From IMG/VR virus record IMGVR_UViG_3300000176_000001: DNA of 64,000 nucleotides; one strand, given 5' to 3'. A program made the position numbers and the translations under genes. The DNA comes from a virus. Below, in pieces: positions 26,096-32,013 of the stretch. Every line of letters starts with the position of its first letter. The stretch's first letter is position 1. The notes below the pieces were generated by a model. It saw only the letters and a list, made by a program, of their open reading frames with translations. It was not told the DNA's origin and made no database searches.

Positions 26096-26125
26096 GCTTA
26101 CCTCCCTGTTAAACTATTATTTATA

Positions 26126-27599: not shown

Positions 27600-28256
27600 T
27601 TATCTTCTCATTAGTTCGTCTACAAACTCTAACAATAATTTGTGATTGTGTTTGGCAACATTCTCATCCCAGACTTTATTCATCCAGCTATATTCTGTGT
27701 ACCAGTGTCTCTCAGCTTCTGGGTGAGAACCTATTAGACCGATGTTCCTTTGGAAACCTGCCATAATATCACCATTTGTATAAGTTGCTACAGTATTGAA
27801 TTTACCATCCCCGATAATACTGCAGCCATCATACCAGAACATCTTCTCTTTTTGACCGTTCCACGTGACTTCTAAGTTCTTAGCGTGTGGTCTTCTGGTG
27901 TCTGTGCCGGGTCTTGCTAGATACTGCACACAGTCTTTGTTCTCTAATATGTTTAGATATTCTTTTCCTGCCCAATAAGCACCCATGCATATACCAAGAT
28001 ACTTACCACCTTGATTTAATACAAAGTCTCTTATAACAGGTATATGTGGTCTCATGATACGATTAAAGGTATCAGCATCGCCAATACCTCCAGGCACAGC
28101 TATCATATCTACGTCATCGAACCAATCGTCGTAGAGTATCTCGTGCTTGGTAAAGATCTTAAATTTGTAATATGGTTGCAGGATATTCATGATGCCATTC
28201 ACACCATGAATGGAGCACCTTGGGTGATCTATGAATAGAGCTATTTTTCCTGCCAA
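27600..28256 (-). CDS. Glutamine-amidotransferase-like protein (BPL_N type)
   Basis: VPGGIGD, YLGICMGAYWA, SHPE triad motifs. Confidence 0.82.
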   Translation of the reverse strand: MAGKIALFIDHPRCSIHGVNGIMNILQPYYKFKIFTKHEILYDDWFDDVDMIAVPGGIGDADTFNRIMRPHIPVIRDFVLNQGGKYLGICMGAYWAGKEYLNILENKDCVQYLARPGTDTRRPHAKNLEVTWNGQKEKMFWYDGCSIIGDGKFNTVATYTNGDIMAGFQRNIGLIGSHPEAERHWYTEYSWMNKVWDENVAKHNHKLLLEFVDELMRR

Positions 28257-28275: not shown

Positions 28276-28349
28276 TGGCGAAGGTGCAAGGATTTGAACC
28301 TTGACTAACAGTTTTGGAGACCGTTGTGCTACCGTTACACTACACCGAC
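28276..28349 (-). tRNA. tRNA-Trp(CCA), with two acceptor-stem mismatches
   Basis: ACGGT-CTCCAAA-ACTGT; acceptor GTCGGTG/CACCTTC; CCA. Confidence 0.75.
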
Positions 28350-28702
28350 AATTTTTTTTTTATATTTTTCGCTGCATACGTATCTTGTTGTGTATGACAG
28401 TTTGGACATAAAAATCTTAAATTACTAATTTTATTGTCATTATTTACACCATTGATATGATCAAGCTGTAATACTAATTTTTTGTTATTATAATTTCCAT
28501 CATTATAACACTCTTGACATTCATATTTGATTAAATTTTGTTTAATCAAACGTTCTTTAAGACGATGTCTTGGATAACTAGAATTTTCAATAAATATTTC
28601 ATCATTACTGAATATTTTTCTAGAATTCGCGCAAGAATATGAACAATAAACACCATTTTTATTATGACTGTTATTGCATTTCGGGCAAAGTTTCATAAGC
28701 AA
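28340..28702 (-). mobile_element. Free-standing HNH homing endonuclease gene
   Basis: LQLDHINGVNNDNKISNLRFLCPNCH; AT-rich; late promoter at 28726-28733. Confidence 0.88.
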
Positions 28703-28786
28703 TCCTCTCTATAAACATTTTTTTATATTTATAAATTATAGGTTCTAAGAACCTGCGGATTACCATCTTCCCCGACCGACACTTTA

Positions 28787-29179
28787 TTAAATTAAAAACT
28801 TAATTGCAGTTACTATACCAATAATAAAGACTGCTGCGACAATAACTGCTTCAATCTTATGAGCTGTTGTCATCGAGTACCACTTTTTCTTTTCAGCCTG
28901 AACGACACTAACAACATTCTTATTACTAAGAATTGAGTGACTCTCATTTAACTTGGCATTAAAAGACTCAAGTATATTTAACAGTTGCTTATGTTTTGCA
29001 ACCTCTGTACTGACATAGTCAACGATATTAGAAACATTTCCAATGAGCTCTAGATGATGCTCAGGTGGAATTGGATCTGTGCTTAGTGGTTGTGCTTGTG
29101 CAGCTGGATTAATAGGTGACTTAGATAATGTATCTAAGACCGATTTAAGGGCTGCTTCAACATCTGTATTATCTGTCAT
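28787..29179 (-). CDS. Hypothetical protein with C-terminal TM anchor
   Basis: 130 aa; late promoter at 29206-29213. Confidence 0.7.
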   Translation of the reverse strand: MTDNTDVEAALKSVLDTLSKSPINPAAQAQPLSTDPIPPEHHLELIGNVSNIVDYVSTEVAKHKQLLNILESFNAKLNESHSILSNKNVVSVVQAEKKKWYSMTTAHKIEAVIVAAVFIIGIVTAIKFLI

Positions 29180-29213
29180 GTTATATCTCCAATTATTTCA
29201 TAATCTATTTATA

Positions 29214-29288
29214 TGGCGACCTGTAGGGGTTTCGAACCCCTCTAACTCGTTAGACAGACGAGTATCTACACCAGCTGATTCACAGGCC
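29214..29288 (-). tRNA. tRNA-Asp(GTC)
   Basis: Cloverleaf; G73; CCA. Confidence 0.9.
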
Positions 29289-29292
29289 GTAT

Positions 29293-29393
29293 TGGCGCCG
29301 CCGAAACATTCGTCTAACCTCATGTCTTCACGGTAGCTAACTCCGTTACTAGATAGGTAGGACTTCAGAGGTCCGTGTCTCGAATGTTCCAGC
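29293..29393 (-). ncRNA. Structured ncRNA candidate ending in CCA
   Basis: 13-bp closing stem GCTGGAACATTCG/CGAATGTTTCGGC with a 3' tail GGCGCCA. Confidence 0.55.
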
Positions 29394-29400
29394 TATTAGT

Positions 29401-29474
29401 TGGAGGCTTGACCGAGAATCAAACTCGGATAGAAGGTTTTGCAGACCTTTGCATCATCATTCTGCCATCAAGCC
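29401..29474 (-). tRNA. tRNA-Cys(GCA)
   Basis: Cloverleaf; U73; CCA. Confidence 0.88.
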
Positions 29475-29499
29475 GTATAACGTATTAAATTTTAAAACT

Positions 29500-29625
29500 C
29501 CGCAGTAACCATTCCTACGCACTACCTCAATTAAGCTGAGCCTCACGTGTTGGCTCGAATGTTGTCTAGGATTGCGACAAGCTCCACCAAACACGGTCGA
29601 CACTGGGTGGGCTAATGGTACCTAG
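29500..29625 (-). ncRNA. Structured ncRNA candidate
   Basis: GC-rich spacer with several hairpins (CCACC/GGTGG, TTGTC/GACAA, GAGCC/GGCTC) closed by ACCATT/AATGGT. Confidence 0.4.
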
Positions 29626-29632
29626 ATCAAAG

Positions 29633-29706
29633 TGGTGCCCAAAGAGAGGATTGAACTGCCAATAAATGATTACTAATCAATTGTTATACCATTTAACTAC
29701 AGGAGC
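29633..29706 (-). pseudogene. Chimeric/degenerate tRNA-Thr (AGT anticodon)
   Basis: Acceptor GCTCCTG/TTTGGGC and T-stem are mispaired; the 3' strand matches the orphan 5' half at 30843-30876. Confidence 0.7.
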
Positions 29707-30065
29707 ATAGATGATTCTTTGGTTAACCAATATTTGGTTTCATTATATTCTTCCCATTTATCACAAAAATTTATATACAATTTGAGATCATGGAAAACTA
29801 ACATGTTTGCAAATTCATTTGGTCCATCTATTGCAAGAAGCATATGCAAATCATAAATGAAATCCAACGTGAAATCTTCTTCACTAAAGCCTGTATTAGG
29901 CCAATGAAATGCTAATTGTTCAATTCCCATGCATACCTCAATGAACTGGGCGGGAGTCCAGAAATGGTCCAGATTACAGTCGAGCATTTCTGCAAGACCC
30001 TCCCGATATATGTAGTGGCTCTTTTCTCTAATCACTCCCGATAGATGCTGGCCAGCATAGGGCAT
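29697..30065 (-). CDS. Hypothetical protein
   Basis: ORF between two Thr tRNAs; start uncertain (MPYAGQH); stop is U8A9G10 of the downstream tRNA. Confidence 0.55.
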   Translation of the reverse strand: MPYAGQHLSGVIREKSHYIYREGLAEMLDCNLDHFWTPAQFIEVCMGIEQLAFHWPNTGFSEEDFTLDFIYDLHMLLAIDGPNEFANMLVFHDLKLYINFCDKWEEYNETKYWLTKESSMLL

Positions 30066-30104
30066 AGAGGTCTGAACGGTGGACGCCACCTTTTCACTAC
30101 AAAC

Positions 30105-30178
30105 TGGTGCTCCCACTTAGAATCGAACTAAGAACTGATGCTTACAAGGCAACTATTATTCCATTTAACTATAAGAGC
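30105..30178 (-). tRNA. tRNA-Thr(TGT)
   Basis: Cloverleaf; CTTGTAA loop; CCA. Confidence 0.85.
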
Positions 30179-30801
30179 TTATCTTTTACTTTATCCCAAC
30201 TTAATTCATTTTTATTTAAAATAATAATATTAATATTATTTTGTTCACATACTTTTTTTATTTTTTCTTTATCAGAAAATCCTAATGATGGATTAATATT
30301 TTCTATTAGAAAGTCGTTTTTAGGGTCAAGATACACATCATAATCAATTAAATATATATCCGGTGTGTATGTTCTTGATTTACCATTAGGGTCAATATAA
30401 TTGAATCTCTTACATGTATCCCATTTTATATTATTTTCATCTAATGATTTTGCTAATATCAGTTCATATGTAGAACCTAACGTTTTACCTTTATATTTTA
30501 TCCACTTAGATTGTCTGACACCACCTAAATTTCTTTCTTTAGCAAGTTTTGATAATTTTTCAATTGTTTCTTTTGATTTAGGAGGTTGCATTTTTGATTT
30601 TTCTGACATTTTTTTTCGTGTATTGTCAGAAATAACATAATTACCCTTTGTCCATTGATTAGCTTTTTTCTTATTTTTTTGAATCTTTAAATCTTGAAAT
30701 GGTGTGTGTTGTTTTTCAGGATTAAGTTTACATAATCGTTCATGATTTCTCAAAGAGTTATCATTTTTTCTTTCTTGTTTACAAAATTTACATATGTTCA
30801 T
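30169..30801 (-). mobile_element. Putative homing endonuclease (Zn finger + NUMOD-like + PD-(D/E)XK domain)
   Basis: CxxC...HERLC; STYE...YTPDIYL...YLDPK; very AT-rich; late promoter at 30835-30842. Confidence 0.75.
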
Positions 30802-30842
30802 ATCATTAGCTTTCGGTAGAGCAATCTTATATTTTATTTATA

Positions 30843-30876
30843 TAAAACCGTTGCACTACCGCTGTGCTATTTGGGC
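30843..30876 (-). pseudogene. Orphan 5' half of a tRNA, truncated at the anticodon loop
   Basis: GCCCAAA-TA-GCAC-AGCGGTA-GTGC-A-ACGGT-TT-TA followed directly by TATAAATA. Confidence 0.75.
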
Positions 30877-31181
30877 TAAAAGGGTGGAAAGAAGTCTCTG
30901 TCGTTAACTGCCTTGTCGTCAATCCAAACATCATAGTCTGGTTTACCAACTCTTGCGGTTGTGAACTTACAACCCCAAGCGTTCAGCTGATACATGGTCA
31001 AGTGATTCCAGTCCTTGCCGCTAGAGCTTCCCCTAGCAGTCCAGTAATGGATCTCATGACCTTCGTCAAAGAGTTGATTAAGATAGTCGATACGGGACTG
31101 GATCGGAATTGAATTCTCATAGTCACGATTAGTCGTGACGCAGATAGTTCCATCGATGTCAACCATATACTTCATCAACAA
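30876..31181 (-). CDS. Small HAD-like phosphatase (BcbF/EcbF type)
   Basis: VDIDGTIC, WTARG, GKPDYDVWIDDKA. Confidence 0.85.
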   Translation of the reverse strand: MLMKYMVDIDGTICVTTNRDYENSIPIQSRIDYLNQLFDEGHEIHYWTARGSSSGKDWNHLTMYQLNAWGCKFTTARVGKPDYDVWIDDKAVNDRDFFPPF

Positions 31182-31190
31182 CTCCTAAAC

Positions 31191-31254
31191 TGGGCGGGAG
31201 GCTGGCTAGAACGCCAGCAGATTACGATCCGGTGTTTCCATCCAGACCCTCCCG
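31191..31254 (-). ncRNA. 64-nt tRNA-like RNA lacking an anticodon arm
   Basis: 7-bp acceptor CGGGAGG/CCTCCCG + C-CCA; T-arm-like CTGGC-GTTCTA-GCCAG; one further hairpin. Confidence 0.55.
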
Positions 31255-31274
31255 ATATTGGCTATAAGCCAAAA

Positions 31275-31351
31275 TGGCTCCTGGAGTAGGAATCGAACCT
31301 ACCTGATGAACAGATTAACAGTCTGCTGTCCCACCTTGTGACCGTCCAGGA
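31275..31351 (-). tRNA. tRNA-Asn(GTT)
   Basis: Cloverleaf; G73; CCA. Confidence 0.88.
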
Positions 31352-31368
31352 ATAAACTCTATAAGCTT

Positions 31369-31397
31369 ACTATATATCATTCTTGCATATATGTACA
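31369..31397 (-). promoter_or_regulatory. Early promoter TGTACA-N17-TATAGT
   Basis: Recurrent motif. Confidence 0.75.
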
Positions 31398-31406
31398 CAA
31401 ATATTT

Positions 31407-31482
31407 TGGTGCTCCCAACCGGATTCGAACCGGTGTGATCCACGTGAGAGGCGGGTATCCTAGGCCGCTAGATGATGGGAGC
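31407..31482 (-). tRNA. tRNA-Glu(CTC)
   Basis: Cloverleaf; CTCTCAC loop; CCA. Confidence 0.9.
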
Positions 31483-31490
31483 AAATTAGT

Positions 31491-31597
31491 GTTAGTTTTT
31501 TGTGTGTCAGGAAAACTAACAAACCCCGCGGCAGCAGCCCATCTCACCATTTCGCTCCGGCGGTGGCGGGTACATTTTCCACAGGTGAGCCCGCCAT
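31491..31597 (-). ncRNA. Structured RNA candidate with pseudoknot
   Basis: TGGCGGG/CCCGCCA stem; loop CTCACC pairs with downstream GGTGAG; 3' hairpin GTTAGTTTT/AAAACTAAC. Confidence 0.45.
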
Positions 31598-31606
31598 ATG
31601 TATTTA

Positions 31607-31682
31607 TGGTCCGAGTGGTGTGATTCGAACCGGTGTGATCCGCGTGAGAGGCGGGTATCCTAGGCCGCTAGATGATGGGAGC
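31607..31682 (-). pseudogene. Chimeric tRNA: Glu(CTC) 5' part joined to a foreign (Pro-like) 3' end
   Basis: Near-identical to 31407-31482 up to GTTCGAATC, then ACACCACTCGGACCA, which cannot pair with the 5' acceptor strand. Confidence 0.75.
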
Positions 31683-31688
31683 GGATAT

Positions 31689-31765
31689 TGGTCAGGGAAA
31701 CAGGAATCGAACCTGCAACCTTTGCGTCCCAAACGCAACGCTCTACCAGATTGAGCTATTCCCTG
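31689..31765 (-). tRNA. tRNA-Pro(TGG)
   Basis: Cloverleaf; C1-G72, A73; CCA. Confidence 0.93.
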
Positions 31766-31773
31766 ATATATAT

Positions 31774-31851
31774 TGGTCCCGTGTATCGGATTTGAACCGA
31801 CGATCTCCACGCTTGAAAGGCGGGTATGTTAGACCGCTACACCAACACGGG
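31774..31851 (-). tRNA. tRNA-Glu(TTC)
   Basis: Cloverleaf with a bulged anticodon stem; CCA. Confidence 0.85.
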
Positions 31852-31852
31852 T

Positions 31853-31929
31853 TGGTTGGCACAGATGGATTCAAACCATCGACCTCACGATTATCAGTCG
31901 TGTGCTCTAATCATCTGAGCTATGCGCCA
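31853..31929 (-). tRNA. tRNA-Ile(GAT)
   Basis: Cloverleaf; CACGA-CTGATAA-TCGTG; CCA. Confidence 0.92.
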
Positions 31930-31937
31930 GTAAACTT

Positions 31938-32013
31938 TGGTAGACCCTGCAAGGATCGAACTTGCGACAAAGAGATTAAGAGTCTCCTGCTCTACCAACT
32001 GAGCTAAGGGTCC
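31938..32013 (-). tRNA. tRNA-Lys(CTT)
   Basis: Cloverleaf; CCA. Confidence 0.93.

Follow-up and report, generated by a model that had tools for sequence, protein, structure and literature searches.

A phage tRNA-Thr gene probably invaded by a free-standing endonuclease cassette that brings its own replacement tRNA

The 64,000 nucleotides (nt) of viral DNA analyzed here, referred to below as the window, belong to the record IMGVR_UViG_3300000176_000001, an uncultured T4-like phage from a lake, and carry 28 transfer RNA (tRNA) genes, every one of them on the minus strand (ARAGORN). Within this tRNA island, a resident tRNA-Thr(UGU) gene is present as two outer pieces, between which lie an endonuclease gene, a second and complete tRNA-Thr(UGU), a tRNA-like element and a small open reading frame (ORF) of 77 codons, termed ORF77. 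We consider it highly probable that the resident gene was invaded by a free-standing homing-endonuclease cassette, that is, by homing without an intron, and that the cassette brought a spare tRNA along with it.

The occupied gene of the window can be compared directly with an intact allele. G001, the virus record closest to the window (164 kb, 99% complete), can be aligned to it on both sides of the insert, with a bridging region of about 21 nt. At this site, G001 (loci L001 and L008) and L007, a relative from a different metagenome, have a single 75-nt tRNA-Thr(TGT) scoring 70.8 bits, and in both relatives (L008 being the G001 locus compared) the first 26 and the last 25 nt of this gene are identical to the two pieces found in the window. 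The gene upstream of the intact tRNA is the upstream gene of the window (88-89% amino acid identity), while the downstream DNA of G001 is 96% identical to the window to about position 29504 and is followed by tRNA-Cys and tRNA-Asp. In the window, about 1,193 nt substitute for the middle 24 nt of the native tRNA-Thr(UGU), comprising its anticodon arm, its variable region and the 5' strand of its T-stem. Because the intact allele holds 24 nt which are absent from the occupied allele and could not be regenerated by deletion, the change was an insertion into an intact gene. Likewise, since both ends are joined in the single intact tRNA of the relatives, the pairing of the two ends in the window is not a matter of chance. 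No homologue of the 210-amino-acid endonuclease was found in the G001 genome, and such a presence/absence polymorphism at one locus among close relatives is expected of a free-standing homing endonuclease. An initial annotation of this DNA had proposed that an ancestral tRNA-Thr was invaded by an endonuclease cassette and had expected relatives to hold an intact tRNA joining the two ends; the intact alleles of G001/L008 and L007 bear this out. Megablast of the region against 50,697 phage records gave no match, and blastn gave tRNA-sized matches only.

The two remnants can be delimited closely (Table 1). The initial annotation described an orphan tRNA 5' half which breaks at the anticodon. The half itself is real, beginning at position 30876 (30876-30845 scores 25 bits, E about 0.001, with a covariance model of tRNA 5' halves), but native identity already stops after nt 26, at the border of the D arm and the anticodon stem, and the adjoining 8 nt (30850-30843) are part of the cassette. 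The same 8-nt string stands at the junction in loci L004 and L193, and L189 has it in the anticodon arm of an intact tRNA-Thr(TGT); its recurrence at the L004 junction and its match to the L189 anticodon arm mark it as a cassette-borne relic of an earlier target tRNA. On the other side, TTTGGGC-ACCA (29643-29633) is the perfect complement of the orphan acceptor strand GCCCAAA, just as the initial annotation had noted for these sequences 1.2 kb apart. The "mispaired tRNA-Thr" to which this 3' end had been assigned is indeed present as a weak call of tRNA-Thr(AGT), with 38 bits versus 57.7 and 66.4 for the intact AGT genes of L193 and L189, but it is in fact a chimera (29706-29633), in which nt 1-49 are of the AGU type, AGTTC occurs in either parent and the final 20 nt come from the resident gene. 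The AGTTC in the T loop marks the right-hand crossover. The acceptor stem of the chimera has two mismatches and two G-U pairs and its T-stem has one mismatch.

Table 1. Features of the occupied tRNA-Thr(UGU) locus, listed in the direction of transcription; positions are those of the window
Feature	Position	Strand	Basis
Resident tRNA-Thr(UGU) 5' part, nt 1-26 (acceptor strand GCCCAAA and full D arm)	30876-30851	-	Identical to G001/L008 and L007
Left end of cassette, 8 nt resembling anticodon-stem strand and start of loop	30850-30843	-	Differs from native allele
TATAAATA, T4-type late-promoter motif at junction	30842-30835	-	Motif match
Inverted tRNA D-arm string containing GCTCTACC, between promoter motif and start codon	30824-30814	-	String match
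Endonuclease gene, 210 amino acids, about 25% G+C; zinc finger and predicted PD-(D/E)xK domain	30801-30169	-	Alignment, model
Imported complete tRNA-Thr(UGU)	30178-30105	-	ARAGORN; Rfam 58 bits
tRNA-like element with closing stem, two hairpins and C-CCA end; imported DNA	30005-29946	-	Folding
ORF77, small gene of 77 codons	29930-29697	-	96% nt identity to L189
Imported nt 1-49, tRNA-Thr(AGU) type	29706-29658	-	Aligns to intact L193 tRNA-Thr(AGT)
Resident tRNA-Thr(UGU), last 25 nt (T loop, T-stem 3' strand, acceptor 3' strand, ACCA)	29657-29633	-	Identical to G001 and L007

Both protein genes of the insert end inside a tRNA. The stop codon of the endonuclease gene, TAG, forms nt 8-10 of the imported tRNA-Thr(UGU), and the stop codon of ORF77 occupies nt 8-10 of the chimeric tRNA. 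ORF77 has no Pfam or PHROG match, as determined by a scan of the enclosing 139-amino-acid ORF (30116-29697).

The origin of the insert can be followed in part. A 4-kb contig from a Joint Genome Institute (JGI) metagenome, L193, is 98.07% identical over 933 nt to window positions 30876-29944, a stretch which spans the remnant, the promoter motif, the enzyme gene (with an enzyme 100% identical to that of the window), the imported tRNA (identical) and the tRNA-like element. The identity begins precisely at nt 1 of the remnant, the gene upstream is unrelated to that of the window, and downstream lie an intact tRNA-Thr(AGT), tRNA-Met, tRNA-Cys and tRNA-Asp, without ORF77. The cassette has moved between different genomic contexts, bounded by tRNA. 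Window positions 29956-29712, which contain ORF77, are 96% identical to L189, where they are located between a tRNA-like element and an intact tRNA-Thr(AGT), and no copy of the endonuclease was found on the L189 contig. More distant relatives of ORF77 (70-74% amino acid identity) precede tRNA-Phe in L190 and L191. The end of the 98% identity to L193 and the start of the 96% identity to L189 overlap within the tRNA-like element, and each of the three crossovers coincides with a short string that tRNA or tRNA-like sequences have in common; these strings are GCAA, AGTTC and the one at the 3' end of the tRNA-like element. As these alignments show, the insert is a mosaic of at least three modules with differing nearest relatives and not one simple cassette. 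When IMG/VR was scanned for the junction pattern, 25 stretches were returned, among which the L004 contig alone proved to be real.

The tRNA-Thr with anticodon AGT (A34), an unusual isoacceptor for bacterial systems, recurs at 29706-29633 in the window, at 2990-3063 in L193 and at 2760-2835 in L189, as well as in L142, L149 and L152, and it often adjoins members of the enzyme family described below. In L152, it stands upstream of the enzyme gene and is similar to the imported TGT tRNA.

The endonuclease gene stands alone, with its own start codon and promoter motif, outside any intron or intein (Rfam). The protein consists of an N-terminal C2H2-type zinc finger, a linker and a C-terminal PD-(D/E)xK nuclease domain, modeled by AlphaFold2 with a mean predicted local distance difference test score (pLDDT) of 87. 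Among 32 aligned homologues, C4, C7 and H20 of the zinc finger are invariant (C24 nearly so), as are E113, D148 (in a TPD motif), D159 and K161. Structural alignment of residues 95-210 with VIA-align gave Z scores of 8.2 for TnsA, 7.5 for VRR-NUC, 7.5 for I-Bth0305I, 7.0 for Vsr, 5.5 for Hjc and 4.5 for I-Ssp6803I. A Foldseek search of the PDB returned no match at E <= 0.001, its list of weak matches likewise pointing to PD-(D/E)xK, and a weak sequence match to T7 endonuclease I covers the region of the glutamate and the TPD motif (E about 0.7-0.9 in a profile search of PDB sequences). By motif and by modeled fold, the enzyme is a member of the PD-(D/E)xK superfamily. It matches a PHROG annotated as endonuclease at 1.2e-7, while GIY-YIG gave no match in Pfam or PHROGs for the window protein, nor in Pfam for the 32 relatives. 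NUMOD3 was detected by Pfam in 6 of these 32 (best E 7e-6). More than 450 homologues are present in a large protein collection, some annotated as NUMOD3 or C2H2 zinc finger, but tblastn of the enzyme produced two weak matches, and the family is rare among cultured phages.

The layout seen in the window recurs throughout this zinc-finger/PD-(D/E)xK family. A profile scan of IMG/VR yielded 80 loci and a scan of metagenomes 12 more, and nearly all of them are located in phage tRNA clusters; the family-wide comparison covers 59 non-redundant loci. In the Thr branch, the enzyme ORF ends inside tRNA-Thr(TGT) or a few nt before it, which supports at the family level the earlier proposal of a tRNA-Thr supplied by the cassette itself; in other branches the enzyme gene is followed by tRNA-Ile(TAT) or tRNA-Gly(TCC), and the enzyme clades track the tRNA type (Thr, Gly or Ile). 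The enzyme stop codon lies within the next tRNA, at nt 5-14, in 24 of 48 non-redundant loci. At many loci, an orphan tRNA 5' half is found upstream of the enzyme ORF, running into the anticodon loop. To quantify this, tRNA 5' halves were searched with a hidden Markov model (HMM) over 333 kb, outside called tRNAs, and a covariance model gave the same sites: 14 of 36 orphan 5' halves fell within 150 nt upstream of an enzyme start, a zone that makes up 2.7% of the DNA, and two further ones precede shorter variants of the enzyme. The 3' halves were sought by a rule that demanded a T loop of canonical form and an acceptor strand able to pair with that of the 5' half. Under this rule, a matching orphan or chimeric 3' half was present at most 1.5 kb downstream in 6 of 19 loci, whereas permuted pairings gave a mean of 1.35 and none of 1,000 reached 6. 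With a looser scan, the 6 matches compared with 4.1 by permutation, which is not better than chance pairings.

Three of these loci illustrate the range of the arrangement. L114 is the cleanest case, as its outer halves pair perfectly in both the acceptor and the anticodon stems and the cassette interrupts the anticodon. In L004 (identical with L090), the stretch 464-2252 contains two paralogous enzyme genes in opposite orientation (496-1197 on the plus strand and 2058-1294 on the minus strand), placed around an imported tRNA-Thr within one split tRNA-Thr whose outer halves pair at only 5 of 7 acceptor positions. Finally, at about 100-480 in L204, an orphan 5' half runs straight into the last approximately 75 codons of an enzyme gene, followed by an intact tRNA-Thr(TGT), and this locus reads as a decaying copy of the cassette. 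On balance, we lean toward the broader view that promoter-endonuclease-tRNA cassettes constitute a widespread and undescribed class of mobile elements, which would home into tRNA anticodon regions, carry a spare tRNA of the same isoacceptor type in place of splicing, use tRNA halves as portable homology arms, switch between Thr, Ile and Gly tRNAs, and drive turnover and mosaicism of phage tRNA sets.

The invasion could have taken place as follows. The enzyme would be made late in infection from the TATAAATA promoter and, in a mixed infection, would cut the intact tRNA-Thr gene of a cassette-free phage in or near the anticodon arm. After resection of the break, repair would copy the genome that carries the cassette, the outer stretches of the tRNA gene providing the homology arms. 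The phage can still decode ACA codons, since the end of the enzyme gene is fused to a complete tRNA-Thr(UGU) of diverged sequence, a copy that is presumably left uncut; compared with the native tRNA-Thr(UGU), the imported one shows wide differences in the D arm, the anticodon stem and the T arm. On the right-hand side, a crossover in the T loop of the donor's next tRNA, tRNA-Thr(AGU), would account for the co-conversion of the tRNA-like element and ORF77 and for the crippled chimeric tRNA. A contrast of canonical D arms in targets with odd D arms in replacements was also considered as an immunity signature and was dropped, as L154 shows the reverse.

Several observations weigh against this reading or narrow it. 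From nt 26 to the T loop, identity to the native allele is interrupted, so that the point of breakage can be placed only within nt 27-50. Both the cut site and the resistance of the imported tRNA gene to the enzyme are properties we infer, the cut site from the junctions (nt 26/27 and the T loop) together with the ends of the family's 5' halves in the anticodon loop. In addition, the window protein reaches no Pfam domain threshold and has a sub-threshold match only, and some members of the family have no called tRNA downstream or no orphan half upstream. Lastly, no donor with the order enzyme, tRNA-Thr(UGU), element, ORF77, tRNA-Thr(AGU) was found; such a donor would make the insert the product of a single repair event, and several recombination events, not one, could underlie it.

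In many unrelated contigs, 5' halves that break off in the anticodon loop are concentrated immediately before genes of this enzyme family, which is not predicted if ordinary recombination between similar tRNA genes broke the resident gene and the endonuclease is a passenger, or an enzyme of some other site, and not the cause of the break. This possibility would accommodate the position of all three crossovers in short strings shared by tRNAs, the mosaic composition of an insert whose parts have different nearest relatives, and the occurrence of other endonuclease genes in tRNA islands, such as an HNH gene at 28702-28340 in the window. However, random tRNA-tRNA recombination would also not be expected to leave matching 3' halves downstream, and the enzyme clades follow the type of the welded tRNA. 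We consider this explanation unlikely, if still deserving of attention, compared with invasion by the homing cassette.

It is very improbable that the junctions arose in the assembly, by the joining of reads of related phages present together. The DNA does come from an uncultured phage, and the 3' junction, at which the imported part is fused to the native 3' end, is seen in the window only, but the 5' junction and 933 nt recur at 98% in L193, an independent metagenome contig, the exact enzyme sequence is recorded on 7 contigs, the longest of 160 kb, and a like layout exists in many independent contigs. Hardly credible at all is the idea that the 1.2 kb are removed or bypassed in the RNA and that the outer halves are united in a functional tRNA-Thr. 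In its favor, the two outer acceptor strands are perfectly complementary, bacterial group I introns are known from tRNA anticodon loops and L114 keeps both outer anticodon-stem strands. Against it, the window has lost 24 nt of the native gene, with the anticodon arm and the variable region, so that the joined halves form no tRNA, no intron ribozyme was found in 28500-32000 (Rfam, E up to 10), a complete tRNA of identical anticodon lies inside the insert, and the window contains neither the ribozyme core and complete exons of a group I intron nor halves that yield a complete tRNA, as in split tRNAs of the Nanoarchaeum type. Re-joining, which the initial annotation had kept as a less likely alternative to invasion by the cassette, is therefore not viable.

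The expression of the enzyme under the homing model would depend on the motif at the left junction. TATAAATA occurs 16 times in the window compared with 5 expected, 13 of these copies being on the coding strand, and in other cassettes, too, (T)ATAAATA follows directly after the orphan 5' half. The motif is thus a putative late promoter, which would drive late expression of the enzyme. Elsewhere in the island, copies of TATAAATA abut the 3' ends of tRNA-Thr(GGT) and tRNA-Asp (26118-26125 and 29206-29213, minus strand), and all along the island late promoters appear to follow directly on tRNA genes.

Between the promoter motif and the start codon, an inverted D-arm string with GCTCTACC is found in five cassettes of different branches (the window, L112, L139, L142 and L149); among non-tRNA GCTCTAC sites in the loci, 5 of 14 fall within 100 nt upstream of an enzyme gene start. 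In the window, the string and the D arm of the remnant together form a hairpin (-21.4 kcal/mol, z -3.3) whose loop contains TATAAATA. The string could be an operator of the enzyme or part of a hairpin for translational control. A hairpin that hides the ribosome-binding site is a weak candidate, since the hairpin ends 8 nt before the AUG.

tRNA-like elements similar to that of the insert are located just upstream of protein genes: at 30005-29946 and about 31255-31190 in the window (minus strand), at 2423-2482 in L189 and at 2927-2985 in L193. They have a closing stem, two hairpins (one of them a canonical T arm in L189) and a 3' C-CCA, and their shared 3' string, CTCCCGCCCAG, occurs in the window only at the element 30005-29946 and at 31200-31190. 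These elements may be processing signals for RNase P/Z or stable small RNAs resembling species 1 and 2 of T4.

The island holds signs of further mobile genes. A possible second cassette occupies 28276-28790 of the minus strand, where the HNH gene mentioned above, which is AT-rich, is preceded by TATAAATA (28733-28726) and overlaps tRNA-Trp (28349-28276), its end falling on nt 8-10 of that tRNA. G001 is without the HNH gene, and its upstream ORF leads directly into tRNA-Trp. The tRNA-Trp of the window has two adjacent mismatches in the acceptor stem (2-71 and 3-70), suggesting another chimera. Farther along, a 218-amino-acid ORF at 27600-28256 (minus strand), which ends at tRNA-Phe (27599-27524) and has no PHROG match, could be a mobile gene of the island.

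The persistence of homing endonucleases in essential genes is attributed either to self-splicing introns and inteins, in which they hide, or to a position beside their target. If our reading is correct, the cassette represents a third route into essential genes, in which an RNA gene is entered without splicing and the damage is paid for by a replacement gene welded to the ORF. Such elements would also explain the mosaicism of phage tRNA islands, their odd, diverged and crippled tRNAs and their crowding by endonuclease genes. As phage tRNAs counter tRNA-cleaving defenses of the host (PMC13096335), elements that swap tRNA alleles between phages may affect this arms race. The enzyme family could, moreover, yield nucleases with specificity for long DNA sites.

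Neither intronless homing nor the presence of endonuclease genes in phage tRNA clusters is new. Full-text searches yielded no paper on a cassette inside its target tRNA gene with a spare of the same anticodon, nor on the family-wide scar pattern or on this zinc-finger/PD-(D/E)xK family. SegB of T4 and F-TflI, F-TflII and F-TflIV of T5 are homing endonucleases of tRNA clusters which cut tRNA genes (PMC2330249), and the mechanism proposed here would match the experimental findings for SegB. Like the enzyme of the window, SegB of T4 and T6 is encoded by a free-standing gene in a phage tRNA cluster, with no intron (PMC2330249, PMC13096335). SegB cuts tRNA genes of T2L and is inherited, together with the neighboring tRNA genes, at nearly 100%, and its ORF ends at the processing site of tRNA-Arg (PMC2330249). 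SegB cuts the tRNA genes of related phages without it and spreads with the adjoining tRNA genes by break repair, steps which in the present case we infer. Its ORF, moreover, reaches up to the point at which the following tRNA is processed, and the enzyme ORF of the window likewise ends at its neighboring tRNA. SegB is a GIY-YIG enzyme which recognizes the T-psi-C motif at the 3' end of tRNA genes, whereas the present enzyme combines a zinc finger with a predicted PD-(D/E)xK domain and the insertion is in the anticodon region; NUMOD3, which is present in SegB, is found in some relatives of the window protein but not in the protein itself. Moreover, SegB sits between tRNA genes and not inside one, and no split target with a same-anticodon replacement has been described for it.

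The T5 enzymes F-TflI, F-TflII and F-TflIV belong to other nuclease families than the enzyme studied here, and no nested tRNA-in-tRNA layout has been reported for them. They do share with it the location of their ORFs among phage tRNA genes (PMC2330249), and their expression is believed to be restricted when the tRNA precursor is processed (cited in PMC2330249).

I-Ssp6803I (PDB 2OST) is likewise a PD-(D/E)xK homing endonuclease of an element in a tRNA anticodon loop, that of cyanobacterial tRNA-fMet, and matches the fold of our enzyme with the Z score of 4.5 given above. Its group I intron, however, splices itself and restores the tRNA, whereas in the window there is no ribozyme and a spare tRNA gene takes its place. 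The domain make-up of I-Ssp6803I also differs, with TnsA, I-Bth0305I and Vsr being closer in fold. In T4, I-TevI is regulated by a late promoter, by an inhibitory hairpin in early transcripts and by autorepression at a target-like operator. A late-promoter motif directly upstream, a hairpin spanning the promoter and a target-like string near it resemble this system, but the hairpin here leaves the start codon uncovered and binding of the enzyme to an operator is conjecture. Finally, integrative elements such as prophages and islands target tRNA genes and carry their own copy of the part of the tRNA that they displace. They resemble the cassette in using a tRNA gene as a landing site whose function is kept by replacement sequence; they differ in that integrases replace only a 3' segment, in register, whereas here a nuclease cassette supplies a whole separate tRNA gene and both halves of the target are left as scars.

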